Assembly: GCA_043779265.1 (NCBI GenBank)
Contig: JAYWEM010000014.1
Coordinates: 1-14,592, forward strand
DNA from: a bacterium
Lineage (GTDB): Bacteria > Eisenbacteria > RBG-16-71-46
Reading direction: 5' to 3'
DNA: 14,592 nt
In this document: positions 1-13,810 of the stretch, piece after piece
Layout: every line of letters begins with the position of its first letter
Position numbering within the stretch: the first letter of the stretch is position 1
Notes under the pieces: generated by a model
What the model was told of the DNA's origin: nothing
Seen by the model: the letters and a program-made list of their open reading frames with translations, nothing else
Databases searched by the model: none
Program-made: the position numbers and the translations under genes

Positions 1-93
1 GGCGGTATTGGCGGGCACGAGCGTCGTGAGCGCCGTGCCTTCGAGCACGCCGTTGATGTAGAGCCGCATCGCCGTGCCATCGTAGGTCGCGGC
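1..93 (-). other. Fragment of a LamG/concanavalin A-like jelly-roll coding sequence, out of frame with mltD
   Basis: 93->1 on the minus strand reads AATYDGTAMRLYINGVLEGTALTTLVPANTA with GC-rich third positions. This matches the typical (HV)AxTYDGxxxRLYxNG motif of LamG-like domains. Confidence 0.7.
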
Positions 94-1982
94 TGGCCCG
101 CCTGGATCGCTCTCGACTCGAGCTTGTTGGCGCGGCGCAGCGACTCGACGCTCACGCCGTGCCGTCTCGCGATCGCGCTCAGGGTCTCGCCGCGGCGCAC
201 GGTGTGGCGGGTGGCGCGAACCTGCTCAGCCTTCGGCTTGGAGCGCTTGTCCGGCTCGACCGCGGGGGCATCGGCGATCGCGGGCGAGTCGCCCGGCGCG
301 AGCGCGTGGCCGCCTTGGATGATCAATCGCTGACCGCGCTGAACGCCACCCTTGCGTGAGGTGATCGAGTTCCACTCGCGCAACTCGGCGACACTGGTGC
401 CCGTGGCCGCGGCGATCGACGATAGCGACTCGCCGGCGCGGACGATGTGCGTGCGCGTGACTGGTGCGAGTGGCGCCGGTTCCGTTGGCGTCACGACCGT
501 GGCCGAGGGGGAGGAGGAAGCGGTCGTCGCCGCGACCGTGCCCGCAGGGCCCGCGACGCCGCGAACGCGCAGGCGCTGGCCCGGGCTCAGACGGTCGGTC
601 TTGAGCGCGTTCCACTGTCGCAGGTCCGCACTGCTCACGCCGTAGAGCTTCGCCACCGTCGCCAGCGTCTGTCCGCGGCGCACCGTGTGCGAGACACGCT
701 CGAGCGTCCTGCTGTCGCCGTTCACTTTCGCGGGCAGGCCGATCACGCGCGGAGGCACGTAGGCGGTCGAGGCGCGCGGGTCGACGTCGGGATCGAGCAC
801 CTCGGGCGTCGGCGAGCGCACGCTCGCCGGGATCGTGACCATGGTGCCGCGCTTGAGCGGACGCTGCTTACTGATGCCGTTGACGCGCGCGAGCTCACGG
901 GCGCTGACGCTGTACTTGCCCGCGATGCCGGCGAGCGTCTCGCCCTTGAGCACCTTGTGGCGCATGGTCAGGTCGGCGGCGGGCAACTTCTCGCCCGACC
1001 GGATCCGCTGCATCAGTTTCTCGCCACGACCCGCCGGAACGCGCAGCGTCGTGACGCCCGTGCCGCCGCGCGCCGTCGCGCCGGTGTAGGCCGGGTTCAG
1101 CAGCTTCAACTCCTCGATCGAGCAACCGGCCAGGCGGGCGATGCTGCGCATGTCGACAGCGCCCTTGAAGCCGATCTCATCGAATGCCATCGGCTGCTCG
1201 AACTCGACCTCGGTGAACCCGTAGCGTGCCGGATCACGTGAGATGGCGAGCGCCGCCATGAACTTGGGAACGTAGTCCTCGGTCTGCTGCGGCAGTCGCA
1301 GGCTCCAGTAGTTCGTGGTGCCCTGCGCCTTCATCGCGCGCAGCACGCGGCCCTCACCGGCGTTGTAAGCCGCGAGGGCCAGCGGCCAGTCACCGAAGAT
1401 GCCGAACAGGTGACGCAGATAGCGCGCCGCGGCGACCGTCGACTTCTCGGGGTCCTTGCGCTCGTCCACCCACTGGTTGACGTTCAGGCCGAACATGCGA
1501 GACGTGCTCGCGAGGAACTGCCACGGGCCCACGGCGGCGGCGTACGAGCGCGCGTGCACATTGAACCCGCTCTCGACGAAGACGACATGCACCAGATCGG
1601 GGGGCAGGCCCTCTTTCTGGAGCACATTGCGGAAGAGCTCCATGTAGCGGCCCGAGCGCGTCATCCAACGCTCGAACGTGCTGCGGCCGTTGCCCGTGAA
1701 GAAACCGATCCACTTCACGACGTCGGCGTTCATCTGGAGCTCGATGTCCTCGATCGCCACCTGCTCGAGCACGGCTCGCTCGGCGGCGCTGCCAACGCTC
1801 TCCTTCTCGGGGATGGCGAGCGGGGCGGTGCCGGGGCCGTACCGGGGCTGCGGCGGCGGTGTCGTGACCGCGGAGTCCGGCGGCACGGCGGGTGCAACTG
1901 CGGCGCTCGTGACTCCCGGGAGGAGTCCGGCACAGATCGCGGCGGCCAGAGCGGCCCGCCGGAGGGTCTGGCGGAACTTCAT
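93..1982 (-). CDS. mltD: MltD-like lytic murein transglycosylase (signal peptide + SLT domain + 4 clear LysM repeats); native 3' end not seen
   Basis: Manual translation from ATG at 1982 (GAGGAG RBS 9 nt upstream) gives MKFRQTLRRAALAAAICAGLLPG (signal peptide). SLT motifs: VFVESGFN (catalytic Glu at 1572-1574), AVGPWQF, VDERKDPEKST, ALAAYNAGEGRV, QTEDYVPKF. LysM repeats begin HKVLKGETL, HTVRRGQTL, HIVRAGESL and HTVRRGETL. The frame has no stop down to base 1, but LysM-like sequence ends at ...AIQAGQ (about 93). Confidence 0.9.
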
Positions 1983-2031
1983 GTGGGGTTTCTCCTCGGA
2001 AGGGACCATCCGTGGCTCAACCAGCTCGGGG

Positions 2032-2077
2032 AATCTATCGGCCATGGCATGCACGCTGCAATGAAATGGATTGTCAA
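2032..2077 (-). promoter_or_regulatory. Candidate sigma70-type promoter for mltD
   Basis: Minus strand TTGCAG (2061-2056), 18 nt spacer, TAGATT (2037-2032). A separate perfect TTGACA lies at 2077-2072 but has no well-spaced -10. The patch is locally AT-rich. Confidence 0.4.
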
Positions 2078-2175
2078 CTTGCACGCAGGTCGTCCTCGAC
2101 CCGCCCCACCGACCCTTGTCGACCAACGGAGCCACCAGGAGTCACGCAAGTCCGATGCCACAAACCGCTATCTCG

Positions 2176-2204: not shown

Positions 2205-2267
2205 GCCGCTCGTTCCCGTACACGGATGTCCGCGGGCCCTCGTAGGCCACCGGGAGGGAGCCCCTCG

Positions 2268-5165
2268 ATGAAAATCGCCAGTTCGTCCGCCCCCAGCTGG
2301 GCGGTATCCACCCATACCGATGGCGAGGTCCTGACCGCCGGCGTCACCGGCGATCACGCCGACCTCGTCCTTCTTGGCATTCCGGTGGGCTTCACGGCCG
2401 CCGAGATCGAGGGCTGGCTCCGCGACCTGGCCGGAGTCGCGTTCGAGACCTCCACCACTGATGCGCGTCAACGCGCCATCCCGTCGCTTCTCCACCATAC
2501 GCTGACGGGGCTTCTGTTCTCGCACGCCGAGCTGTGGACCCGCGGCGACGACCCGGTGCCCTGTTCCGCCGTGTTCATCGACACGCCGGATGGCGCGTCG
2601 TTCGGCTGGGTGGGCGAAGCCAACGCACGGGTCCGCATCGAAGGCCGCGACTATTCGCCGCAGTGGGTGATCGTCCGAGACGAGGAGGGCCGCGAGGCGC
2701 GCGCCGCGATGCTGCCGCCCGGCGTGCGCGCCGAGGTCTCGGTCGAGCATTGGCCCGGTGGCCGCGACTCCGGACACGCGCCGATCACGGTCGAAGCGGA
2801 GTGGGGAGCGAGTGCGCTCACCGATTCCGCTCCCTCGACCGATCCCGCGCCGCTCACCGCCGCCAGTCCCGAGGCTCCCGCCGAGGCCGCAGCAGCGATG
2901 CCGATGGTGCTCGAGCTCGAGCACCTCGCCGCCGCGCCGATCGCCGAACTGCCGCCGCTGCCCGAGTCGCTTCCGGTCGGTCAGCCGAGTCTGATGGCTT
3001 CGGGGGCCGACGCTGTCTCGTCGCAGACGCACGTGGAAACGTCCCCCCAGCCGCCGATCGCTTCGACCATCGAGCCGTTGGAGTCGATCGCACCCGCAGA
3101 ATCGGGGTTCGCGCGCGAGCCTGCGGTAGCGCCTCCCAGGTCGCATCCGGTCGCACGCTGGCTCGGCCGCCTCATGCAGTGGGGACGAAAGGACGAGACG
3201 ATCGAAGAGGCCGCCACGGAGGCCGTGAGCGCGCCGACCGAGGTCGCGCCCGCACCCGCACCCGCGCTCGTACCCGAAGCGGCACCCACGGCATCGCCCG
3301 AGTCCCCGGGTGATGCGCCGGTGTCCCAGTACGATCTGCTGCTGACGACGCCCGAGGAGGACCTGGCTCCCGAGATGCAGGTCGTCGAGCCGGGCGACGC
3401 CGCGGCGTCGATCCCCGAGTGGAGCGAGGCATCCGCCAGTCTGCCGCCGCCTCCGGCACCGGAGATCGAGCCGCAGAGCGTGACGCCCGAGTCGCCCACG
3501 GCGTTCGCGCCACATCACGAGGAAACGCCGCCGGCGATCGAGCCATCGGCACCCGCCGCCGCGGCCGATCGGCCGACGCTCGCGCCTGCGGGCTTCGAGG
3601 ACATCCTCGGCCGCGGCCGCTCGTCCGAGCCGCCGAACCCGCTTTCACCGCAGCCCGTCGCGCCGCGCGCCCACACCGAGATGCCGTCGGATGCGACCGT
3701 GCTGCCCAAGCTGTCGGTGCCGCTGCCGCCTGAGTCGACGGACCTGCCGATCCACGTCGAGCATGAACCCATCGGCGCGCACTCCGAGCAGTTCGACATC
3801 GCGCCACTGCCGGCCGATCGCAGACTCGGGCTGTCGCGCCCGACGCTCGAGGACCCGCTGGCGAACGAAGATCCGCATGCGGCGCTGCTCGACCTGCCCT
3901 GGCTCGAGCCGAGTCACGATCGCGATCGCAGTGTGCGAGTGCCCGGAGAGCCGGTCGTCTCGCGGCGTGCGTGGCCAGCGCCCGATGAGGAGTCGAGGCT
4001 GCGGCCGCGTGTCTCTCCCGCCATGATCGGACTCGGCGCGGCCTTGGTCATTCTGTTCGGCGCGGGTTGGTTGGTCGGCAGTTGGCAGGGACAGCGGGCG
4101 GGTGAGCCCTCGATGGCCGATCGCCTGCTGCGGTCGGTCGGGCTCGGAGCGCCTCGATTCACCGCCGAGATGGAGACGCAGCCTCCTGGCGCATGGATCT
4201 CGGTCGATGGCCGCGAGCTGCAGCGCCGGACGCCCGCGTCGATCGAGCTGTCGCCGGGAGATCATCAGGTCACGTTCTCGATGCCCGATCTGGGTGAGCA
4301 TGTCGTGACGGTCTCGGGCCGCAAGGGCGAGAGCGTCAGGGTCAACGAGTCCCTGCACGGCACGCTCGAGGTGATCCCCTCCGACACGAGTGTGCCGATC
4401 CAGGTGAGCGTCGATCGTCAGCCGCTCGGCTATGCGCCGATCTCGGTCGAATCGATCGAACCGGGGCTGCACGAGGTGATGTTCTCGGGCCCCGGCATGC
4501 CGGCGTGGGCGCAGACCGTGCAGGTCGGCATCCGTCGCACCGCGCAGGTCGTCGCGCATCCGATGACGTCGCCGGCGACCGGCGTGCTGCAGGTGCAGGC
4601 GAGTCTCGACGACAGTCAGGGTTCCTCGCCGCTCTCGGGTGCTCAGGTCTTCGTCGATGGCGAGATGAAGGGCGTCACGCCGCTCTCGGTCGAGATGGCG
4701 CGTGGCCCGCACAGCATCCGCGTGCATTGGCGAGGCGAGACCGCTCCGGTCCAGGTCATCGACCTGCCGGGTGGCAACCAGCGATTCGCGATGTTCGCCT
4801 TCGGACTCGACATGGATCAGCCCATCCTCAAGCCGCTCTCGCTGCCGCGCAGCATCGATGCGACCGAACCGACGACGGTGTCCGCGGCACTCGATGGCAT
4901 GAGCGCCAACGTCGTTCGCGAGGCGTGGCTGCACGTGCGCACGAGCGAGGGCCTGTGGCGTCGCTCCTCGATGAGCGTGATGCGCGCACCCAAGGGTGTG
5001 GTGCTCTCGGCCGTCTTCCCATTCAACACCCTCGAGGGCCAGACGCAGACGAGGTGGTACATGAGCGCCCTGACGCTGCAAGGCGACGAGTACTTCACCG
5101 AGATGCAGCGCGTGCAGGTGTCGAATAGCACGCCTCGACGAACGGCGGCCTCGGACCCGCCCTGA
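2268..5165 (+). CDS. Single-pass membrane protein with three PEGA-like repeats, a long Pro/Ala/Glu linker and a possible degenerate PP2C-like N-terminal domain
   Basis: GGGAGGGAG RBS (2252-2260) favours ATG 2268 over 2226. TM segment MIGLGAALVILFGAGWLVG (about 4023-4079). PEGA-like signatures: ETQPPGAWISVDGR..RTPASIELSPGDHQV, QVSVDRQPLGYAPISVESIEPGLHEV, GAQVFVDGEMKGVTPLSVEMARGPHSIRV. Confidence 0.8.
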   Translation: MKIASSSAPSWAVSTHTDGEVLTAGVTGDHADLVLLGIPVGFTAAEIEGWLRDLAGVAFETSTTDARQRAIPSLLHHTLTGLLFSHAELWTRGDDPVPCSAVFIDTPDGASFGWVGEANARVRIEGRDYSPQWVIVRDEEGREARAAMLPPGVRAEVSVEHWPGGRDSGHAPITVEAEWGASALTDSAPSTDPAPLTAASPEAPAEAAAAMPMVLELEHLAAAPIAELPPLPESLPVGQPSLMASGADAVSSQTHVETSPQPPIASTIEPLESIAPAESGFAREPAVAPPRSHPVARWLGRLMQWGRKDETIEEAATEAVSAPTEVAPAPAPALVPEAAPTASPESPGDAPVSQYDLLLTTPEEDLAPEMQVVEPGDAAASIPEWSEASASLPPPPAPEIEPQSVTPESPTAFAPHHEETPPAIEPSAPAAAADRPTLAPAGFEDILGRGRSSEPPNPLSPQPVAPRAHTEMPSDATVLPKLSVPLPPESTDLPIHVEHEPIGAHSEQFDIAPLPADRRLGLSRPTLEDPLANEDPHAALLDLPWLEPSHDRDRSVRVPGEPVVSRRAWPAPDEESRLRPRVSPAMIGLGAALVILFGAGWLVGSWQGQRAGEPSMADRLLRSVGLGAPRFTAEMETQPPGAWISVDGRELQRRTPASIELSPGDHQVTFSMPDLGEHVVTVSGRKGESVRVNESLHGTLEVIPSDTSVPIQVSVDRQPLGYAPISVESIEPGLHEVMFSGPGMPAWAQTVQVGIRRTAQVVAHPMTSPATGVLQVQASLDDSQGSSPLSGAQVFVDGEMKGVTPLSVEMARGPHSIRVHWRGETAPVQVIDLPGGNQRFAMFAFGLDMDQPILKPLSLPRSIDATEPTTVSAALDGMSANVVREAWLHVRTSEGLWRRSSMSVMRAPKGVVLSAVFPFNTLEGQTQTRWYMSALTLQGDEYFTEMQRVQVSNSTPRRTAASDPP

Positions 5166-5311: not shown

Positions 5312-7708
5312 ATGGGTGGACGGATCGCGGTTCCGATCGCTGTTCTCATCTGGGCGGCGCTGCTCATGGTGCCGTCTCTTCGAGTCGGCGCGGTGGCGGC
5401 CTGGTCGGCGGCCGCCGTCGCCGCCTCGCTCCTGGCGTTGCGTGCGCCGCCTCTCACCTCGCGCGCGCTGGTGTTCGTGGCGATCATGAGTGCTTCCTTC
5501 GCGCGTGGCGGCGCGCATCAGGCGAGGCTCGCCGCCGAGTCGGCATGGCTTCGCGAGTCGAGCGTCGTGGCCCGCCTCGTCGTGGTGATCGAGGAGCCAC
5601 CGAGGCGCGAGGGAGGTGAGCCCGTGGCCTCCGTTCGAGTGGTCCGCTCTCGACCGACATTCGCCGCCGGCACGCGGCTGCGATTGCGATGGCCGAAGGA
5701 GGGGGGCGGCGAGTGGGCGGACACGCTCGAGGTGCTGGCGCGGTTGGATCGGCCGAGCCCGAAGCGGTCCCCGGGCGGCTTCGATGCCGCGGCCGCCGTT
5801 CGTGCCCAGGGACTCGCGGCGCACGCGCATGCGTTCACCGTGACGCTCCGACCGGCGCGCGGCTGGGCCCGCATCCCGGTCGCCTTGGCGACACGGCTCC
5901 GCCGTGCCTGCGAGCGGGCGCTGACGCGCGCCCTTCCTCCCGAGGCGCACGAACTGGTGGCGCCGCTTCTGTTCGGCGATCGCAGTGCGATGTCCACCGA
6001 GGTCGATGCGGCCCTGCGCGCTTCGGGGCTTGTGCATCTGCTCGCGCTCTCGGGTCTGCATGTCGCTTGGATGGCAGCGGTGATGCGAGGGCTCGCCGCG
6101 ACGGCGGGCGCCTCGGCGCGCAGTCGTGCGCTGGCGGGAGCGGCGTGTGCGATCGGTTACGCACTGCTGGCCGGGCCGATCCCGTCGCTGTGGCGGGCGT
6201 CGGCCACGGAGTTGGTCACGGCGATGGCGCAGCGTGCGCAGCGATCGGTCGATCCCATCCAGGCGCTCGCCGTCAGCGCAGTCGCGCTGCTGATGTTCTC
6301 GCCCGGATGGGCGGACGACCTCGGTTTCCAGTTATCGTGCGCCGCCACGCTCGGGCTGATCACGCTCGCCCGCCCGATCGCCGCGCCTTTCACGCACCGC
6401 TTACCGGCTGTGCTCCTGACCCCGCTCGCCGCGACGATCGCGGCGCAGACCGCAGCCCTGCCGCTGCTCATCTGGCGCTTCCATGCGGTGCCGTGGACCG
6501 GGTTGCTCGCCAACCTGCTCGCCGTTCCGATCGCCGAACTGCTCCTGGCGGGAGCGTGGATCGGTGCGCTCGCCGAAGTCGTGCTGCCGGGCGCGGGTGC
6601 CATCTGGCTCTCGGCCTGCGTCCCACTCGCCGCGGCGCTGCGGGCCGTGAGCGAATCGGCGGCGCGCGTGCCGCTCGCGCTGCTGCCGTGCGGCGATGGC
6701 GCGTGGGCCGCGACGGCCGCCGCGATCGGCGCCACGCTCCTGATGATGGCGCTGAGTCCCGAGCGTGCGGTAGCGCTGGCGCGCGCCGCACGCTGGCGCG
6801 AGAGCGCGGCTGCGGCCGGCGTGCTGGCGCTGGCGCTGTCGATCGTGTCGATCGCCAGTGAGCGGCCGCTGTCGCCGCCTCGCGATCGATGGTGGTGCGT
6901 TGCGCTCGATGTCGGACAGGGCGACGCCATCGCCATCGGGACGCGCGAGGGCTGGTGGCTGATCGACACCGGTGCGCGCTCGCCCAAGTGGGATGCGGGA
7001 GAAGGCGTGGTGCTGCCGTTCCTCAGGTGGGCGGGGGTGCGCGAACTCGCCGGGCTCGTCCTGACGCATGACGACAGCGACCACACGGGAGGGGCCGAGG
7101 CGACGAGGCGCGGCATCGCGATCGCGCGCACGCACGCCTCGATCGCGTTGCCCGGCGTGAACGGACTCGCGGCGCGTTTCGGTGCGTTCGAACAGGCGAG
7201 GGGCGACACGCTTCGGCATGCGACGCCTCGATTCGTCGTCCTGTGGCCGCCTCGCCCGGGAGAATCAGGGGAGTCGATCGCTCGTCGCGGCGACAATGCC
7301 GCATCGCTCGTGCTGCGAATCGGCGAGGGCCGCGCCTCGGCGCTCCTGCTCGCCGACGTGGATTCGCTCGTCGAGGCGGAACTCGCGCTCACACCCACGT
7401 CGCTGCTCAAGGCCGGTCACCACGGCAGCGGCTCCTCGAGCGGCGCCTCGTTGCTCTCTCGCGTCCGTCCATCGGTCGCGATCCTCTCCTGCGGTCGGCG
7501 CAATCGATACGGACATCCGGAGCGGGGCGTGCTCGTACGGCTCGCCACGTTCGGCGTCGCGACTCAGCGAACCGATCTCGCGGGGAGCTTCGTGCACGAG
7601 TTCGGCCCGGGCGGACGCACCGTGCTCGACTGGCGAGGCGGCGCGATGCGGCCTGTCGGACCGAAGCTCGCGGCCGCCGGTCCGTGCTCGGGCGCGCGCT
7701 CGCAATGA
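5312..7708 (+). CDS. comEC: DNA uptake competence protein ComEC/Rec2 with C-terminal metallo-beta-lactamase-fold domain
   Basis: Competence-domain motifs LLFGDRS, SGLVHLLALSGLHV, DLGFQLS, GLLANLLAVP. MBL motifs DVGQGDA, LIDTG, LTHDDSDHTGG, DNAASLV, LKAGHHGS, NRYGHP, RTD. Many hydrophobic helices. GAGG at 5301-5304 precedes the ATG. Confidence 0.95.
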   Translation: MGGRIAVPIAVLIWAALLMVPSLRVGAVAAWSAAAVAASLLALRAPPLTSRALVFVAIMSASFARGGAHQARLAAESAWLRESSVVARLVVVIEEPPRREGGEPVASVRVVRSRPTFAAGTRLRLRWPKEGGGEWADTLEVLARLDRPSPKRSPGGFDAAAAVRAQGLAAHAHAFTVTLRPARGWARIPVALATRLRRACERALTRALPPEAHELVAPLLFGDRSAMSTEVDAALRASGLVHLLALSGLHVAWMAAVMRGLAATAGASARSRALAGAACAIGYALLAGPIPSLWRASATELVTAMAQRAQRSVDPIQALAVSAVALLMFSPGWADDLGFQLSCAATLGLITLARPIAAPFTHRLPAVLLTPLAATIAAQTAALPLLIWRFHAVPWTGLLANLLAVPIAELLLAGAWIGALAEVVLPGAGAIWLSACVPLAAALRAVSESAARVPLALLPCGDGAWAATAAAIGATLLMMALSPERAVALARAARWRESAAAAGVLALALSIVSIASERPLSPPRDRWWCVALDVGQGDAIAIGTREGWWLIDTGARSPKWDAGEGVVLPFLRWAGVRELAGLVLTHDDSDHTGGAEATRRGIAIARTHASIALPGVNGLAARFGAFEQARGDTLRHATPRFVVLWPPRPGESGESIARRGDNAASLVLRIGEGRASALLLADVDSLVEAELALTPTSLLKAGHHGSGSSSGASLLSRVRPSVAILSCGRRNRYGHPERGVLVRLATFGVATQRTDLAGSFVHEFGPGGRTVLDWRGGAMRPVGPKLAAAGPCSGARSQ

Positions 7709-7758: not shown

Positions 7759-8424
7759 GTGCTCGCGTCCAGGCCCGTCCGATTCGCCGTGCTGGCTTCC
7801 GGCAACGGCTCGAACCTCGAGGCGCTCGCGGATGCCGCTGAACGCGGCACGCTGGGGGGCCCGATCGTCGCCGTCCTCAGTGATGTCCCCGATGCGTTCG
7901 CACTCGAGCGCGCGAGACGACGCGGCCTCCCCGCACTGGCGCTTCCGACCGGACGCTTCCGCACGCGGATCGAGGACGAGTCCCCTTGGCTCCAGGCCCT
8001 GCTCGATCATGGGACCGAGGTCGTGCTGTGCGCCGGATTCATGCGCCGTCTGCACACCACGCTGCTCGCACCCTTCGCCGGTCGCATGCTCAATATCCAT
8101 CCCTCGCTGCTGCCGAGCTTCGCGGGGCGTGACGGCATCGGCGATGCGCTCGCCCACGGCGTGCGCGTCACCGGTTGCACCGTGCATCGGGTGGAGGAGG
8201 GCATCGACTCGGGTCCGATCGTGGCGCAAGCGGCGGTCGAGGTTCTCTCGGACGACACGCGTGATTCACTCGCCGAGCGCATCCACGCCGCCGAACATGC
8301 GCTCTACCCGGGAGCGGTGAGGCAGTACGTGCAGCTGCCGTGGCGACTCGATGGCCGACGCATCGTGTTCGGCGCAGGCGACGGACTCCAGCTCCCACCC
8401 ACCCAGGAGGCGGCGCGTGGTTGA
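7759..8424 (+). CDS. purN: Phosphoribosylglycinamide formyltransferase
   Basis: VLASGNGSNL, LCAGFMRRL, NIHPSLLPSF, GCTVHRV, IDSGPIVAQ, IHAAEH; catalytic N, H and D present. Confidence 0.96.
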   Translation: MLASRPVRFAVLASGNGSNLEALADAAERGTLGGPIVAVLSDVPDAFALERARRRGLPALALPTGRFRTRIEDESPWLQALLDHGTEVVLCAGFMRRLHTTLLAPFAGRMLNIHPSLLPSFAGRDGIGDALAHGVRVTGCTVHRVEEGIDSGPIVAQAAVEVLSDDTRDSLAERIHAAEHALYPGAVRQYVQLPWRLDGRRIVFGAGDGLQLPPTQEAARG

Positions 8425-9196
8425 TGTCAGGCCGACGCTCGAAGCCGTGTTGTTCGATGCCGGCGGCACGCTGGTGCGAATCGATTACGAGTGGGTGAGT
8501 GAGATGCTGGCCGAACTGGGCGTCGAGGCGAGCGTCGAACAGGTGCGCCGCTCCGAGGTGAGAGGCCGGCGGCTCTACGACGCTGCGGCCACTCGGCCGC
8601 GGCGCCTCGCCGAGGGCGAGGCGCATCCGACGCTCGGCAGCGTGGCGCCGGTCGAAGCGTACTGGTCGGGCATGCTCGAAGCGGCCGGATGCCGCCATCC
8701 GCTGCTCGAGGAGGCGATCGACCGCATGAGCGAGAAGCAGCGTCCGCCTTCGCTGTTGTGGGGACGCCCGCTCGAGGGTTCGCGCGAGGCGATCGCGGGC
8801 GTGCTGGGGCTGGGATTGCGCGCGGCGTGCGTCAGCAACAGCGATGGTCGCGCCGAGCATCACCTCGTCACGTGCGACGTCCGCGACGGGCTCGAGTTCG
8901 TGGTCGATTCGCAGATCGTCGGCATCGAGAAGCCCGATCCCCGGATCTTCGGAATCGCGCTGGAACGCATGGGGATCTCGGCCGAGCGCGCGCTCTACGT
9001 GGGCGACATCCGCAGCGTGGATGAAGCGGGGGCGCTGGCGGCCGGCATGTCAGTGGTCATCCTCGACCCGTTCGGGGACTATGTGCCCGAGGATCGGCGC
9101 AGCATCCGTGACATCTCGCTGCTCCCGGAGTACCTGGAGAGACACTTCGCGACGCCGGGCGGGGCCAACGGGCCCGCGTCGGTTCGATCGTCCTGA
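8417..9196 (+). CDS. HAD-superfamily (class IA) hydrolase/phosphatase
   Basis: AGGAGG (8405-8410) precedes GTG 8417, which overlaps the purN end. HAD motifs: AVLFDAGGTL (I), VSNSD (II), EKPDPRIF (III), YVGDIRSVD (IV). Confidence 0.88.
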   Translation: MVDVRPTLEAVLFDAGGTLVRIDYEWVSEMLAELGVEASVEQVRRSEVRGRRLYDAAATRPRRLAEGEAHPTLGSVAPVEAYWSGMLEAAGCRHPLLEEAIDRMSEKQRPPSLLWGRPLEGSREAIAGVLGLGLRAACVSNSDGRAEHHLVTCDVRDGLEFVVDSQIVGIEKPDPRIFGIALERMGISAERALYVGDIRSVDEAGALAAGMSVVILDPFGDYVPEDRRSIRDISLLPEYLERHFATPGGANGPASVRSS

Positions 9197-9239
9197 CGTA
9201 CCCATACGCGCGGTCCCGAGAGGCCGCGGAGGAGGGGAC

Positions 9240-10172
9240 ATGAACGCGGCTGCTCCCATCGTCATCCCGTCCGAGTGGCTCGAAGCCGCTCATGCCGTGA
9301 TGGAACCCGACGTGCCCGGTGCCACGACGCTCCGGCGCGGCAAGGTCCGCACGGTTTTCGAGGCCGGCCCCGATCACCTGGTCATCGTCGCGAGCGATCG
9401 TCTGAGCGCCTACGACTGCATCCTGCCCACGCCCATCCCGGGCAAGGGCGCCGTGCTCTCGGCGATCTCGGCCTTCTGGATGAAGCGCCTGCGCGCCGCG
9501 CAGCCGAATCATCTGGTCAGCGATGATCCCGCCGAGTTCCCCGAACCATTCCGCTCGCACATCGCCCACCTGAGTGGTCGGGCGCAGTTGGTGCGCCGCG
9601 CCGAGCGAGTCGACATCGAGTGCGTTGTGCGCGGCTATCTGACCGGCAGCGGCTGGCGTGAGTACCAGCACCGTCGCACCGTGTGCGGCATCGCGCTGCC
9701 CGAAGGGCTTCACGATGGCAGTGCGCTCGAATCGCCGCTCTTCACGCCCGCCACCAAGAACGATCACGGTCACGACGAGAACATCCCATTCGAGCGCATG
9801 GTCGAGCAGGTGGGTGAGCCGACCGCGCGTGCACTGCGGGCCCGCAGCCTTGCGATCTACGAGGAGGCGAGGCGGTGGGCCTGGGAGCGCGGCCTCGTGC
9901 TCGCGGACACCAAGTTCGAGTTCGGACGGATCGGCGAGGAGTGGGTGCTGATCGATGAGGCGCTGACACCCGACTCCTCGAGGTACTGGGACCGAAACGC
10001 CTACGAGCAGGGCCGGCTCGAGTCGTTCGACAAGCAGTATGTGCGCGACTGGCTGGACCGGAGCGGTTGGGACCACGAACCGCCCGCGCCGTCCCTGCCC
10101 GCCGACGTCGTGCGGCAGACCCAGGAGCGCTACCTCGAGGCGATCACCCGATTGTCGCAGGCGCCGAGGTGA
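9240..10172 (+). CDS. purC: SAICAR synthetase (long type, 310 aa)
   Basis: GGAGGAGG RBS before ATG 9240. Motifs GKVR, ASDRLSAYD, IPGKG, IECVVRGYLTGSGW, FTPATK, HDENI, ADTKFEFG, IDEALTPDSSRYW, FDKQYVRDWL. Confidence 0.96.
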   Translation: MNAAAPIVIPSEWLEAAHAVMEPDVPGATTLRRGKVRTVFEAGPDHLVIVASDRLSAYDCILPTPIPGKGAVLSAISAFWMKRLRAAQPNHLVSDDPAEFPEPFRSHIAHLSGRAQLVRRAERVDIECVVRGYLTGSGWREYQHRRTVCGIALPEGLHDGSALESPLFTPATKNDHGHDENIPFERMVEQVGEPTARALRARSLAIYEEARRWAWERGLVLADTKFEFGRIGEEWVLIDEALTPDSSRYWDRNAYEQGRLESFDKQYVRDWLDRSGWDHEPPAPSLPADVVRQTQERYLEAITRLSQAPR

Positions 10173-11749
10173 GCGCGCGCATCGAGGACGCCCGCGTGCA
10201 ACCGCGGCCGGTGCCGCAGGGCTGGCCGAGGGCGGCCCTGCTGTCGCTCTCGGACAAACAGGGGGCCGTCTCGTTCGCACGATCGCTCGCCGAGCATGGT
10301 ACGAGGATCCTCGCGAGCGGCGGGACCGCGAAGCATCTGGAGCAGGCCGGGCTCACGGTGGAGCCGCTCGAGCGCTGGACGGGTTTCAGCGAACTGCTGG
10401 GCGGCCGCGTGAAGACGCTGCATCCGCATGTGCACGCACCCATCCTCGCGCGGCGCGATGCCGCTGCCGACATGGCGGAGCTGAGCGAGCGCGACCTCGA
10501 ACCCATCGATCTCGTGGCCGTCTCGCTCTATCCGTTCGAGTCGCGCGGCGTGACCCTCGAGGATGCCGACATGATCGAGGAGATCGACATCGGCGGCGTG
10601 GCGTTGCTGCGTGGTGCGGCCAAGAACCACGAGGGAGTGCTCGTGCTGCACGATCCCTCGCAGTACGAGCTCGTGATCGAGGCGTTGCGCGATGGCGTGA
10701 GCCCCTCGTTCCGACGAGAACTGGCGCTCGCCGCATTCGCGCGCACCGCGCGCTACGACGCGGCCATCGCGAGCGAGCTGGCCCGTCGCATGGGCAGCGC
10801 GGGGGAGCCGCCGCGCTTCCATGCGACGATCCTCGAGCGCTCACGCACGCTGCGCTACGGAGAGAATCCGCATCAGAGCGCCGCGCTCTACACACGAGCC
10901 GGGGAGGCGGCGACGCTCTCGGCGTGGCGCGAGGGCAAAGAGCTGTCGTTCAACAACCTCCTCGACCTGGAGGCGGCCGTCTCGCTGGTCGGACGCTTCG
11001 AGTCTGCCGCGTGCGTGATCGTGAAGCACAACCAGCCCTGTGGCGCCGCCGTCGCCGGATCGATCGCCCAAGCGTATGAAGCCGCACACGCCTCGGACCC
11101 GCTCTCGGCGTTCGGCGGCGTGGTCGCGCTGAATCGGCCGCTGGATGCGGAGACCGCGCGCCTCATCGGCACCCGCTTCGTCGAGTGCGTCGCGTTCCCG
11201 TCGATCACCCCCGAAGCCGACGAGGCGCTGCGTGGCCTTAAGAACCTGCGACTGGTGCCGCTGAGTGCCGCGGATCTGGAGTCGGTGGACGCATGGCGGG
11301 CGCGCCCGGTCGGTCGCTGGGCTCTGTTGCAGCGATCGGGCAAGGGTGAGGCACCCCCGTGGCGCACGGTCAGCAAGCGCGCGCCGAGCGGCGCCGAGAT
11401 GGCGGCGCTGATGTTCGCGTGGGAGGTGTGCGATGCCGCGCGCAGCAATGCCATCACGCTCGCGAGGGGCGAGTCCCTGATCGGGCTCGGCAGCGGTCAG
11501 ACGTCGCGTGTCGATGCGGTGGACGTGGCACTCATGAAGGCACGTCGCTCCGGGCATGAGACGAAGGGTTCCGTCCTGGCGAGTGATGGGTTCTTCCCGT
11601 TCGCCGATGGCGTCACGCATGCGGCCGAGGCGGGCATCACCGCTCTGGTGCAACCGGGGGGCTCGGTGAAGGATGCCGCGGTGATCGCCGAGGCTGACCG
11701 GCTGGGGCTCGCCATGATCCTCACCGACCGCCGGGTGTTCCGGCATTGA
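10169..11749 (+). CDS. purH: Bifunctional AICAR transformylase / IMP cyclohydrolase
   Basis: GTGA overlap with the purC stop. Motifs SDKQG, GGRVKTLHP, IDIGG..AAKNH, LRYGENPHQ, GKELSFNN, KHNQPCG, SAFGG, SNAI, GQTSRVD, ASDGFFPF, QPGGS, terminal FRH. Confidence 0.96.
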   Translation: MSARIEDARVQPRPVPQGWPRAALLSLSDKQGAVSFARSLAEHGTRILASGGTAKHLEQAGLTVEPLERWTGFSELLGGRVKTLHPHVHAPILARRDAAADMAELSERDLEPIDLVAVSLYPFESRGVTLEDADMIEEIDIGGVALLRGAAKNHEGVLVLHDPSQYELVIEALRDGVSPSFRRELALAAFARTARYDAAIASELARRMGSAGEPPRFHATILERSRTLRYGENPHQSAALYTRAGEAATLSAWREGKELSFNNLLDLEAAVSLVGRFESAACVIVKHNQPCGAAVAGSIAQAYEAAHASDPLSAFGGVVALNRPLDAETARLIGTRFVECVAFPSITPEADEALRGLKNLRLVPLSAADLESVDAWRARPVGRWALLQRSGKGEAPPWRTVSKRAPSGAEMAALMFAWEVCDAARSNAITLARGESLIGLGSGQTSRVDAVDVALMKARRSGHETKGSVLASDGFFPFADGVTHAAEAGITALVQPGGSVKDAAVIAEADRLGLAMILTDRRVFRH

Positions 11750-12282
11750 GCGGCCTGCCGACGGGCGGCACGTCGGAGGCGAGAGCCCGCTTCGATGAAC
11801 TCGACCTTCCCAAGCGCCCGGGTCTCTACCGGATCTGGCTCGGCCCCGAAGCCGAGGACACGGTGTTGGGGCTCGAGCCCGGCTCACTCCTCTATGTCGG
11901 CCGCGGCCGGCGCGTCCGCACGCGCGTGCTGGCGCATGCCCGCTCGGACAAGACGAGTGGGTCGACGTTCCGCCGCACGCTCGGTGCGCTGCTTCGCGAG
12001 CCGCTCGCCCTCACCGCGTACCTCGGCGGGGCCGGCGATCCGCATCTCTTCCGCTTCGACCCCGCGGGAGAGGATCGGCTCACCGAGTGGATCGCCACGC
12101 ATCTGAGAGTCTCGGTCGAGGTCTCGGTCGAGGCATTCGAGAGCGAACTTGCAGTGCTCGCACGCGAACGGCCACCGCTCAATCTCAAAGACGTCACCCA
12201 TGCCCACACGGATCGGGTCACCGCCTACAAGAATCGCTGCGTCGACGACGCTCGTGCGAATGGAGTCCTCCTTGCCTCGTGA
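11746..12282 (+). CDS. Stand-alone GIY-YIG family nuclease (178 aa)
   Basis: LPKRPGLYRIW (GIY), LLYVGRG (YIG), VRTRVLAH (conserved Arg/His), FESELAVL (metal-binding Glu region), PPLN (conserved Asn). It exactly fills the purH-guaA gap. The TTG start overlaps the purH TGA; the start position is uncertain. Confidence 0.82.
   Translation: MSGLPTGGTSEARARFDELDLPKRPGLYRIWLGPEAEDTVLGLEPGSLLYVGRGRRVRTRVLAHARSDKTSGSTFRRTLGALLREPLALTAYLGGAGDPHLFRFDPAGEDRLTEWIATHLRVSVEVSVEAFESELAVLARERPPLNLKDVTHAHTDRVTAYKNRCVDDARANGVLLAS
12109..12132 (+). repeat. Perfect 12-bp tandem duplication (GTCTCGGTCGAG x2, VSVE-VSVE) inside the GIY-YIG gene
   Basis: Directly visible at 12109-12120 and 12121-12132. Confidence 0.9.
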
Positions 12283-13810
12283 ACTCGTCCTCATCCTCGA
12301 TTTCGGTTCCCAGTACACGCAGTTGATCGCCCGCAAGGTGCGCGAGCTCGGCGTCTTCTCCGAGATCATCCCCGGCAATGCCACGATCGAGGCGATCCGC
12401 GCCCGCCGACCGAGCGCGCTGATCCTGTCGGGTTCGCCCTCGAGTGGCTATCGCGCCGGCGCACCGCAGCCCGACCCGGCGATCTACGCGATGAAGAAGC
12501 CGCTGCTCGGCATCTGCTACGGCTTCCAGGTCACGCAGCAGCTGATGGGCGGACTCGTCGCCAAGGCGGAGCACGCCGAATACGGTCTGGCGACGTTCCT
12601 GGTCGACAAGCCATCGCCTCTGTTCACTGGTGTGCCCAAGCGATTCCGCGCGTGGATGAGCCACGGCGACGAAGTGCAGGCGCTGGGTCCCGGTTGGATC
12701 AAGGTCGCGCACACGGCGAACTGCGCCTTCGCGGCGGCCAAGCACGAGAGCAAACCGTTTCATTTGATCCAGTTCCACCCCGAGGTCCATCACTCGCCCT
12801 ACGGCAAGCAGGTGCTCTCCAACTTCCTCTTCAAGGTGGCGGGGCTGAAGGGCGGCTGGACCATGAAGCACTTCGTGCGCGACGCCATCCGCGCCATCCG
12901 CGTGCAGGTCGGCGAGGGCCACGTCCTGTGCGGGCTCTCGGGCGGAGTCGATTCCACGGTGGCTGCGACGCTGCTGCACCGTGCCATCGGCAAGCGATTG
13001 TCCTGCGTGCTCGTCGACCACGGGCTGCTCCGCAAGGACGAGGCGCTCGAGATCGATCGCGAGTTGGGGCAGCGCCGTCATCTGAACCTGACGATCGTCG
13101 ATGCGCGCGATCGGTTCCTGGATCGCCTCGCCGGCGTCACCGATCCCGAGGAGAAGCGCAAGCACATCGGCCATGAATTCATCGCCGTCTTCGAGGAGGA
13201 GGCCAAGCGTCTCGGTCCGATCGAGTTCCTCGCCCAGGGCACGCTCTATCCCGACGTGATCGAGAGCGCTTCGGCGGGCTTCGGAGCGCAGGTCATCAAG
13301 TCGCACCACAACGTCGGCGGGCTGCCGGAGAACATGGCGCTGCGATTGGTGGAGCCGCTGCGCTGGCTGTTCAAGGACGAGGTGCGCGAAGTGGGACGTG
13401 AACTGGGCCTGCCCGATCACTTGGTGGATCGACATCCCTTCCCGGGCCCCGGCCTCGCCGTGCGAGTGCTGGGGGCGATCGAGCCGCATGACCTCGAAGT
13501 GCTGCGAGAGGCGGATGCCATCTTCATGGAGGAGCTGCGTCGTGCGAAGTGGTACAGCCGCACCTGGCAGGCGTTCGCGGTGCTGCTGCCGGTGCGCACG
13601 GTCGGCGTCAAGGGCGACGAGCGCAGCTACGAGAAGGTGCTCGCCCTGAGGGCGGTGGACTCGGTCGATGGCATGACCGCCGACTGGAGCAAGCTGCCTT
13701 ACGCGCTGCTCGGACGCGTCGCCAATCGCATCGCCAACGAAGTGCGCGGCGTCAATCGCGTCGTGTTCGACATCACGAGCAAACCGCCCGCGACGATCGA
13801 GTGGGAGTGA
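12272..13810 (+). CDS. guaA: GMP synthase (glutamine-hydrolysing)
   Basis: LILDFGSQYTQLIAR, GICYG, WMSHGD, QFHPEV, SGGVDS, QGTLYPDVIES, IKSHHNVGGLP, FPGPGLAVR, KPPATIEWE. Start is either TTG 12272 (GGAG 6 nt upstream, preferred) or ATG 12260. Confidence 0.97.
   Translation: MPRELVLILDFGSQYTQLIARKVRELGVFSEIIPGNATIEAIRARRPSALILSGSPSSGYRAGAPQPDPAIYAMKKPLLGICYGFQVTQQLMGGLVAKAEHAEYGLATFLVDKPSPLFTGVPKRFRAWMSHGDEVQALGPGWIKVAHTANCAFAAAKHESKPFHLIQFHPEVHHSPYGKQVLSNFLFKVAGLKGGWTMKHFVRDAIRAIRVQVGEGHVLCGLSGGVDSTVAATLLHRAIGKRLSCVLVDHGLLRKDEALEIDRELGQRRHLNLTIVDARDRFLDRLAGVTDPEEKRKHIGHEFIAVFEEEAKRLGPIEFLAQGTLYPDVIESASAGFGAQVIKSHHNVGGLPENMALRLVEPLRWLFKDEVREVGRELGLPDHLVDRHPFPGPGLAVRVLGAIEPHDLEVLREADAIFMEELRRAKWYSRTWQAFAVLLPVRTVGVKGDERSYEKVLALRAVDSVDGMTADWSKLPYALLGRVANRIANEVRGVNRVVFDITSKPPATIEWE

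Follow-up and report, generated by a model that had tools for sequence, protein, structure and literature searches.

GIY-YIG restriction endonucleases are described as single-domain enzymes that have acquired insertions and terminal extensions in place of further domains, and as associating with a methyltransferase (PMC1564403). CMoRE/PD-T4-3 is described as a type IV, single-gene defence that depends on 5-hydroxymethylcytosine (5hmC) (PMC12923530), SsnA as a 94-residue protein of cd10448 flanked by hairpin repeats designated NTS/SRM (PMC11893778), and the Tsy transposon as a YRec-HTH-TnsF operon inserted in comM (PMC10293859). Here we analyze a stand-alone GIY-YIG gene that lies between purH and guaA in a 14,592-nucleotide stretch (the window) of contig JAYWEM010000014.1, from an Eisenbacteria genome of lineage RBG-16-71-46 (GenBank assembly GCA_043779265.1). 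What is new is that the gene encodes an intact member of PF20815 (GIY_YIG_2), a catalogued family without a reported function. We assign a probability of roughly one half to its being a horizontally acquired, host-retained, methylase-free solo endonuclease of the defence type that occupies a cargo slot.

The 178-residue product matches the PF20815 profile at 52.2 bits, above the gathering cut-off of 22.4 (E = 8.5e-14), over residues 46-156, which include an insert of about 55 residues that is the signature of the family. The AlphaFold (AF2) model, built from a 109-row alignment, has a predicted local distance difference test (pLDDT) score of 93.8, and the top six structure matches by VIA are all GIY-YIG proteins with middling Z-scores of 4.5-7.3: the UvrC N-terminal domain (7.3), I-TevI (6.0), T4 endonuclease II (EndoII; 6.0), the GIY-YIG domain of a plant Grx protein (5.6), R.Eco29kI (5.0) and PD-T4-3 (4.5). 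Foldseek likewise has GIY-YIG domains in its first ten rows, yet only at E-values of 0.02 or worse. As modeled, the protein has the three-stranded GIY-YIG core fold. A first-pass annotation had read this open reading frame as a GIY-YIG nuclease and proposed profile and structure searches of its subfamily, and these returned PF20815 and the GIY-YIG fold. Because of the profile score, the pLDDT and the purifying selection described below, we regard the frame as a real gene and not a chance one.

All seven catalytic residues are present, each of which is found in 91-99% of 166 aligned family rows; the YIG, Glu and Asn regions align weakly to UvrC (1yd3). The clade that contains the window protein and its congeners (the genus clade) comprises 16 proteins, and in the 15 covered by the residue check the catalytic set is whole in 14, with F-A-G in place of Y-V-G in the other. 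The insert, which the annotation did not recognize, does differ from the UvrC-type core but is the PF20815 hallmark rather than a novelty; its S73, R76, R77 and W115 are conserved at 96%, 99%, 93% and 99% in the family alignment, and by analogy it may form a scaffold that binds the DNA backbone. A phmmer search of 1.84 billion representatives returned 654 matches at E ≤ 0.001 (as 50%-identity clusters), only one of them above 45-46% identity, and the ESM Atlas neighbours of the protein are all PF20815 clusters. A long branch (1.2-1.8 changes per site) leads to the genus clade, which carries a more basic GRGRRVRTR segment and lacks the P-R and W-x-N-P motifs of the family. Literature searches on PF20815, on GIY_YIG_2 and on Eisenbacteria with GIY-YIG found no paper, the supplements of recent defence-discovery papers, which might list members, lying outside their scope; a search combining GIY-YIG, IS1595 and passenger found none either.

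Set beside the described systems, the window protein resembles R.Eco29kI, Hpy188I and T4 endonuclease II in being a single domain with insertions and terminal extensions, with identities of 13-17% and with the Eco29kI match extending over 110 residues and that to Hpy188I reaching a Z-score of only 2.8. Unlike the type II GIY-YIG enzymes, it has no adjacent methyltransferase, and purH and guaA flank it in each of the three genomes of its genus (g1). It shares with CMoRE/PD-T4-3 the condition of a single-gene, methylase-free GIY-YIG nuclease, which provides a precedent for the mechanism we favour, but it has GLYRI instead of GIYxY, has no C-terminal modification-sensing domain and is negative in PADLOC. 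The best fold match, to UvrC-N/Cho (root mean square deviation 2.6 over 82 residues), is accompanied by a weak match to the Cho profile (11.8 bits against a cut-off of 367, E = 0.096); the UvrB-binding, RNase H-like and HhH domains of UvrC/Cho are absent, and the insert is an addition. Like Ssn, the gene is a stand-alone, single-domain GIY-YIG gene, but the protein is longer, the gene overlaps both neighbours, and there is no intergenic DNA and there are no flanking hairpins. We rejected assignment to Ssn, CMoRE, UvrC/Cho and type II restriction enzymes, from each of which the protein is set apart by the features tested. A Tsy nuclease locus was rejected as well, there being no Tsy genes in the window and no comM-like match in 157 family loci.

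The gene is present in all three g1 genomes, each time in the order purH-GIY-guaA. Among the 15 joints listed, of 62 from four DNA runs of one study, none skips the gene, but two of the runs may be the source of the window and we do not count this as evidence. A profile search of the 89 genomes of the taxonomic family found it in five, the three of g1, one of genus g18 (G111) and one (G102) whose copy is partial, fused and away from purH-guaA, so that a single full-length copy lies outside g1; across the phylum PF20815 occurs in 8 of 206 genomes. In the presence/absence check proposed in the annotation, the gene is fixed within the genus and patchy beyond it. Pairwise Nei-Gojobori ratios of nonsynonymous to synonymous change (dN/dS) are 0.15-0.32 for the nuclease gene, far from the value near 1 that would have spoken against it, and 0.22-0.27 for purH and 0.14-0.22 for guaA; its dS resembles that of purH and guaA, and its GC content at third codon positions (0.80-0.94) is close to that of its neighbours. 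From the 3/3 presence and these ratios, the gene is of long standing in g1 and under constraint equal to that on purH; the stand-alone nuclease described in the annotation is retained under purifying selection.

The position of the gene proved less informative than had been supposed. The end of purH was located in 81 of the 89 family genomes, 80 of which could be traced downstream (G018, with a split purH, was left out; junction loci L005-L034 and L042-L101). Contrary to the annotation, which treated the adjacency of purH and guaA as an oddity, guaA follows purH within the available sequence in 71 of these 80 and is thus the family norm. The gap is shorter than 100 bp in 29 of the 71, 100-249 bp in three and at least 250 bp in 39; alleles of the empty and of the filled kind occur together in five genera. 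The cargo comprises at least eight unrelated types, including YdeI/OmdA, a cupin, a DUF4258-DUF2283 pair, a 547-residue AAA ATPase (L077), GIY_YIG_2, three kinds of unnamed membrane protein and orphans, with no integrase among the slot genes scanned. The purH-guaA junction is a high-turnover cargo slot, and since related bacteria carry many unrelated genes or nothing there, the position of the nuclease alone says little. In one genome (G071; L027/L094), a short guaA-like start after purH and cargo is followed by unrelated sequence, guaA having apparently been lost or misassembled.

Nor is there good support for the claim that the gene is locked in place; the 5′ overlap is not a lock. In 32 of the 80 genomes purH ends in CATTGA, which creates a TTG automatically, and several other cargo reading frames start at that TTG with the same ATTGA overlap; the close sisters G064, G065 and G068 have empty spacers of 17-33 bp. 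At the other end, the tail encoded by the overlap with guaA is identical in all 15 genus-clade proteins examined, and guaA starts with TTG in 3/3 g1 genomes, ATG being the nearest in-frame start in 54 of the 71 family genomes; translational coupling between nuclease and guaA is plausible on these two grounds. Such coupling does not explain constraint over the whole nuclease protein.

The full-length copy in genus g18 (L039/L073) lies 22 bp behind purH and is 39% identical to the window protein; a proxy tree built on purH+guaA puts the two genera far apart. The copies come out separately in free trees, but a tree that groups them is not rejected (p = 0.34 in the approximately unbiased (AU) test). 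The G111 copy has Ala in the column of the catalytic Glu. With proteins P0112, P0172 and P0173 it forms a second purH-adjacent GIY_YIG_2 lineage in which catalytic residues were progressively lost, P0112 and P0172 lacking further ones. The recurrence of GIY_YIG_2 at this junction may be a property of the slot, because other cargo types show the same patchy pattern across genera; it is nevertheless the main coincidence that a slot explanation leaves over.

Elsewhere, a degenerate-motif scan collected 64 GTDB and 93 metagenome loci of the family, every one confirmed by hidden Markov model, and we profiled 229 neighbours from 63 GTDB loci (L111, the Eisenbacteria record, being left out) and 85 from 58 non-duplicate metagenome loci, with gene calls by our own script and context classes by our own tally. 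The annotation had held that homologues in an already characterized family with unrelated contexts would count against a special role here; the family, with members in many phyla, is indeed catalogued and its contexts varied (51 context groups among the 63 loci), yet no function has been reported for it. Restriction or defence genes lie within two genes of the nuclease in 10 of the 63 loci: type I restriction-modification (L143, L160), GmrSD (L138, L154), UvrD with a methylase (L120), DRT2-like (L144), AbiU2 (L161), YhcG (L130), AlbA_2 (L124) and helicase-DUF559 (L121). Four further loci have HNH, TIR-NB-ARC or AAA_15 genes (possible defence), four an integrase, resolvase or IS1595, and three toxin-antitoxin genes only, which brings the raw count, taken without a background rate, to 21 of 63. 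The single plasmid match is flanked by two methylases and a tyrosine integrase. Longer members bear RHH, MerR, tandem GIY-YIG or IS1595 domains; tRNAs occur in only 3 of the 64 loci, and no common insertion motif was visible by eye among the 64. Five of the 64 GTDB copies (L122, L128, L132, L134, L144) are broken by a stop or frameshift near profile positions 100-124, through decay or assembly error, and in a control lineage, relatives within the Hyphomonadaceae, the gene is patchy (7/61). Two in-frame fusions in Acidobacteriaceae, aguB-GIY (N-carbamoylputrescine amidase; L103:4724-6235, minus strand) and GIY-hemD (uroporphyrinogen-III synthase; L148:3887-5257, minus strand), look as if inserted at operon gene boundaries.

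Under the reading that we favour, a PF20815 gene would have entered the ancestor of g1 horizontally, landed in the high-turnover slot and been inherited vertically as a host gene, with expression from the pur operon probably achieved by translational coupling through the stop/start overlaps at both ends. The product would be a one-domain, Mg-dependent DNA nickase or endonuclease whose insert and C-terminal helix grip DNA, as proposed for R.Eco29kI-type insertions, and the purH-guaA address would chiefly offer a convenient site of expression. The enzyme would probably act on DNA that the host does not normally make, either modified or incoming phage or plasmid DNA or damaged DNA; dependence on modification or damage is likely because there is no methylase or partner gene. 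We rate solo anti-phage or anti-plasmid defence as the single most likely role. Several observations weigh against this. About two thirds of the family loci have no defence or mobile neighbour and lie mostly among housekeeping genes or genes without assigned function, and PADLOC gave no match for the query protein and only one weak match (PDC-M57B, E = 2e-4) among 109 family members. Conservation equal to that of purH is unusual for arms-race genes; both full-length acquisitions in the taxonomic family (2/2) sit behind purH; and a defence nuclease does not account for a Bacillota clade of near-core status that lacks the catalytic Glu.

That clade belongs to a Bacillota lineage with small genomes, in which the gene was found in single copy in 44 of the 81 genomes searched, all 44 being among the first 51 listed and the last 30 having no copy (loci L272-L315, L163, L166, L219, L235; genomes G206, G207, G211-G259). 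In 43 of the 44, hpt lies directly upstream, the other locus ending 70 bp upstream of the gene, and rdgB lies within the available sequence of 11. The S/T-x-x-R-R, His, Trp and Asn positions are kept, but the catalytic Glu is present in only 3 of 44; as it is lost in 41, the hpt-linked protein is probably nuclease-dead, and the clade likely represents a domesticated protein.

These loci bear on a purine-linked function, in which the protein would recognize hypoxanthine or xanthine in DNA or RNA, phage-modified purines or a nucleotide of the inosine mono- or triphosphate (IMP/ITP) type and would have been recruited repeatedly beside purH, guaA, hpt and rdgB. The annotation had raised such a domesticated enzyme, and part of the evidence sides with it: the second copy behind purH in a distant genus, the Bacillota linkage, hpt directly upstream in two GTDB and two further metagenome loci, and the order rph-x-GIY-rdgB in a pair of Planctomycetota genomes (2/41). 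The motif scans nevertheless hold just two independent purine contexts (hpt, rdgB) in roughly 100, against a chance expectation of about 0.5-1.2 (P about 0.1-0.3, a rough figure that assumes gene counts), and the purine-adjacent copies occupy four separate places in the tree, though the test does not reject a single clade (p-AU 0.158). Endonuclease V (EndoV; PF04493) was found in 0/89 family and 0/81 Bacillota genomes, an absence that would fit, but carriers and non-carriers both lack it and the rdgB-linked genome has it; replacement of EndoV was rejected because the two genes show no complementary pattern, and replacement of UvrC or RdgB because the genus keeps both. The slot, moreover, accepts many non-purine genes. 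The purine link is a weakly supported hint, not statistically established, and we consider a purine-linked function unlikely. The wider proposal is more doubtful still, that PF20815 is a family of sensor-nucleases for non-canonical purines (hypoxanthine or xanthine in DNA, phage-modified purines) which several lineages, two without detectable EndoV, domesticated beside IMP/ITP genes (purH-guaA, hpt, rdgB), the Glu-less Bacillota form being a purine-nucleotide- or DNA-binding partner of HPRT.

Three other explanations were weighed. A generic accessory repair or structure-specific nuclease (Cho- or Slx1-like) for genome maintenance would suit the UvrC N-terminal domain as nearest solved structure, the slow evolution in fixed slots and the many copies among housekeeping genes; it is doubtful, given that a separate UvrC, complete with a GIY-YIG domain, is encoded in the genome, that the UvrC match is limited to a core common to the whole superfamily, that a UvrB-binding domain is absent and that the phylum distribution is patchy. 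It is very unlikely that the gene is a nuclease-dead or neutral passenger, kept only for the guaA ribosome-binding site and weak TTG start in its 3′ end: the invariant overlap-encoded tail, the guaA TTG start in the genus and the loss of catalytic residues in other family clades would fit, but constraint spans the whole protein, catalytic residues included (core dN/dS 0.12-0.28), and an internal deletion would spare the ribosome-binding site. We give slightly less credence again to a selfish homing endonuclease that spreads by cutting empty purH-guaA alleles, a possibility raised in the annotation. Free-standing homing endonucleases of the GIY-YIG type are exemplified by the T4 Seg proteins, and the window gene resembles such enzymes in its catalytic core, shared with I-TevI, and in being wedged between conserved genes; divergent copies are found at this junction in two distant genera, empty alleles are common (29/71) and the purH 3′ end is well conserved in DNA. 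However, filled alleles and some empty ones (G061) do not differ in sequence across the 5′ junction and the empty spacers are highly variable, which leaves homing no target that distinguishes self from non-self. The protein has no appended DNA-binding module, the gene is fixed across the genus under host-level constraint, and the AU test does not reject a single origin for the two copies. Insertion sites share no motif on inspection, and neither a tblastn search of 50,697 phage records nor an exact-motif scan of IMG/VR, of limited sensitivity, gave a match.

Taken alone, the locus is of modest interest, as one more lodger in a variable slot. The PF20815 family matters more, being widespread (654 clusters), structurally clear and found in defence islands as well as in the form of a stable host gene, and its intact 178-residue member would be easy to test for a new one-gene restriction or repair activity. 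The hpt-linked clade is a clean case of what seems to be a conflict nuclease put to another use, and distant relatives beside hypoxanthine/inosine genes make a role on abnormal purines worth testing. If true, a purine link would point to a way in which some bacteria that lack endonuclease V deal with deaminated purines, and a sensor-nuclease family would constitute a new EndoV-independent route for their repair or restriction.

Features of the nuclease locus, in window coordinates.
Feature	Position	Strand	Basis or detail
Nuclease gene, GIY_YIG_2 (PF20815), 178 aa, TTG start	11746..12282	+	Profile, AlphaFold model, structure matches, dN/dS
Catalytic-residue span	11827..12183	+	Y28 (11827), Y50 (11893), G52, R60 (11923), H64 (11935), E134 (12145), N146 (12181)
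Family-specific insert, about residues 65-119	11938..12102	+	S-T-x-R-R helix, short strand, E-x-R-L-T-x-W helix
purH, intact, start approximate; CAT-TGA end	10169..11749	+	Profile
GGAG ribosome-binding site and probable guaA TTG start, within last nuclease codons	12262..12274	+	
guaA (GMP synthase), intact	12272..13810	+	Profile
purN, HAD hydrolase and purC, upstream part of same apparent operon	7759..10172	+	Profile; order as in L111

The coordinates bear out both overlaps noted in the annotation: the nuclease TTG (11746-11748) overlaps the purH stop (11747-11749), a consequence of the CATTGA end, and GGAG (12262-12265) and the guaA TTG at 12272, 11 nt inside the nuclease frame, fall in the last nuclease codons. 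This TTG is most likely the guaA start, since the congeners G001 and G002 lack the in-frame ATG at 12260. Both neighbours are intact, as had been stated, with profile scores above the NCBIfam cut-offs (577.9 bits against 402 for purH, 754.3 against 400 for guaA). The annotation also reported no terminal repeat, target duplication, adjacent methylase or extra DNA-binding domain, and we found none; the short repeats of the window include no conspicuous flanking repeat or target duplication, nothing notable in promoters or terminators was seen around the gene, and an Rfam search of the window returned no RNA family.

The Ca. Eisenbacteria GTDB record L111 has the order purN-HAD-purC-purH-GIY-guaA at 75-85% identity to the window. 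The HAD hydrolase between purN and purC (8420-9196, plus strand), also found there in L111, is possibly a purine-pathway phosphatase. A perfect 12-nt tandem repeat inside the nuclease gene (12109-12132) is imperfect in relatives and probably due to chance. Farther upstream, the window encodes an SLT transglycosylase with four LysM domains (3-2135, minus strand), a 979-residue protein that combines three PEGA domains with a long N-terminal half of low complexity (2226-5165, plus strand), and ComEC (5312-7708).

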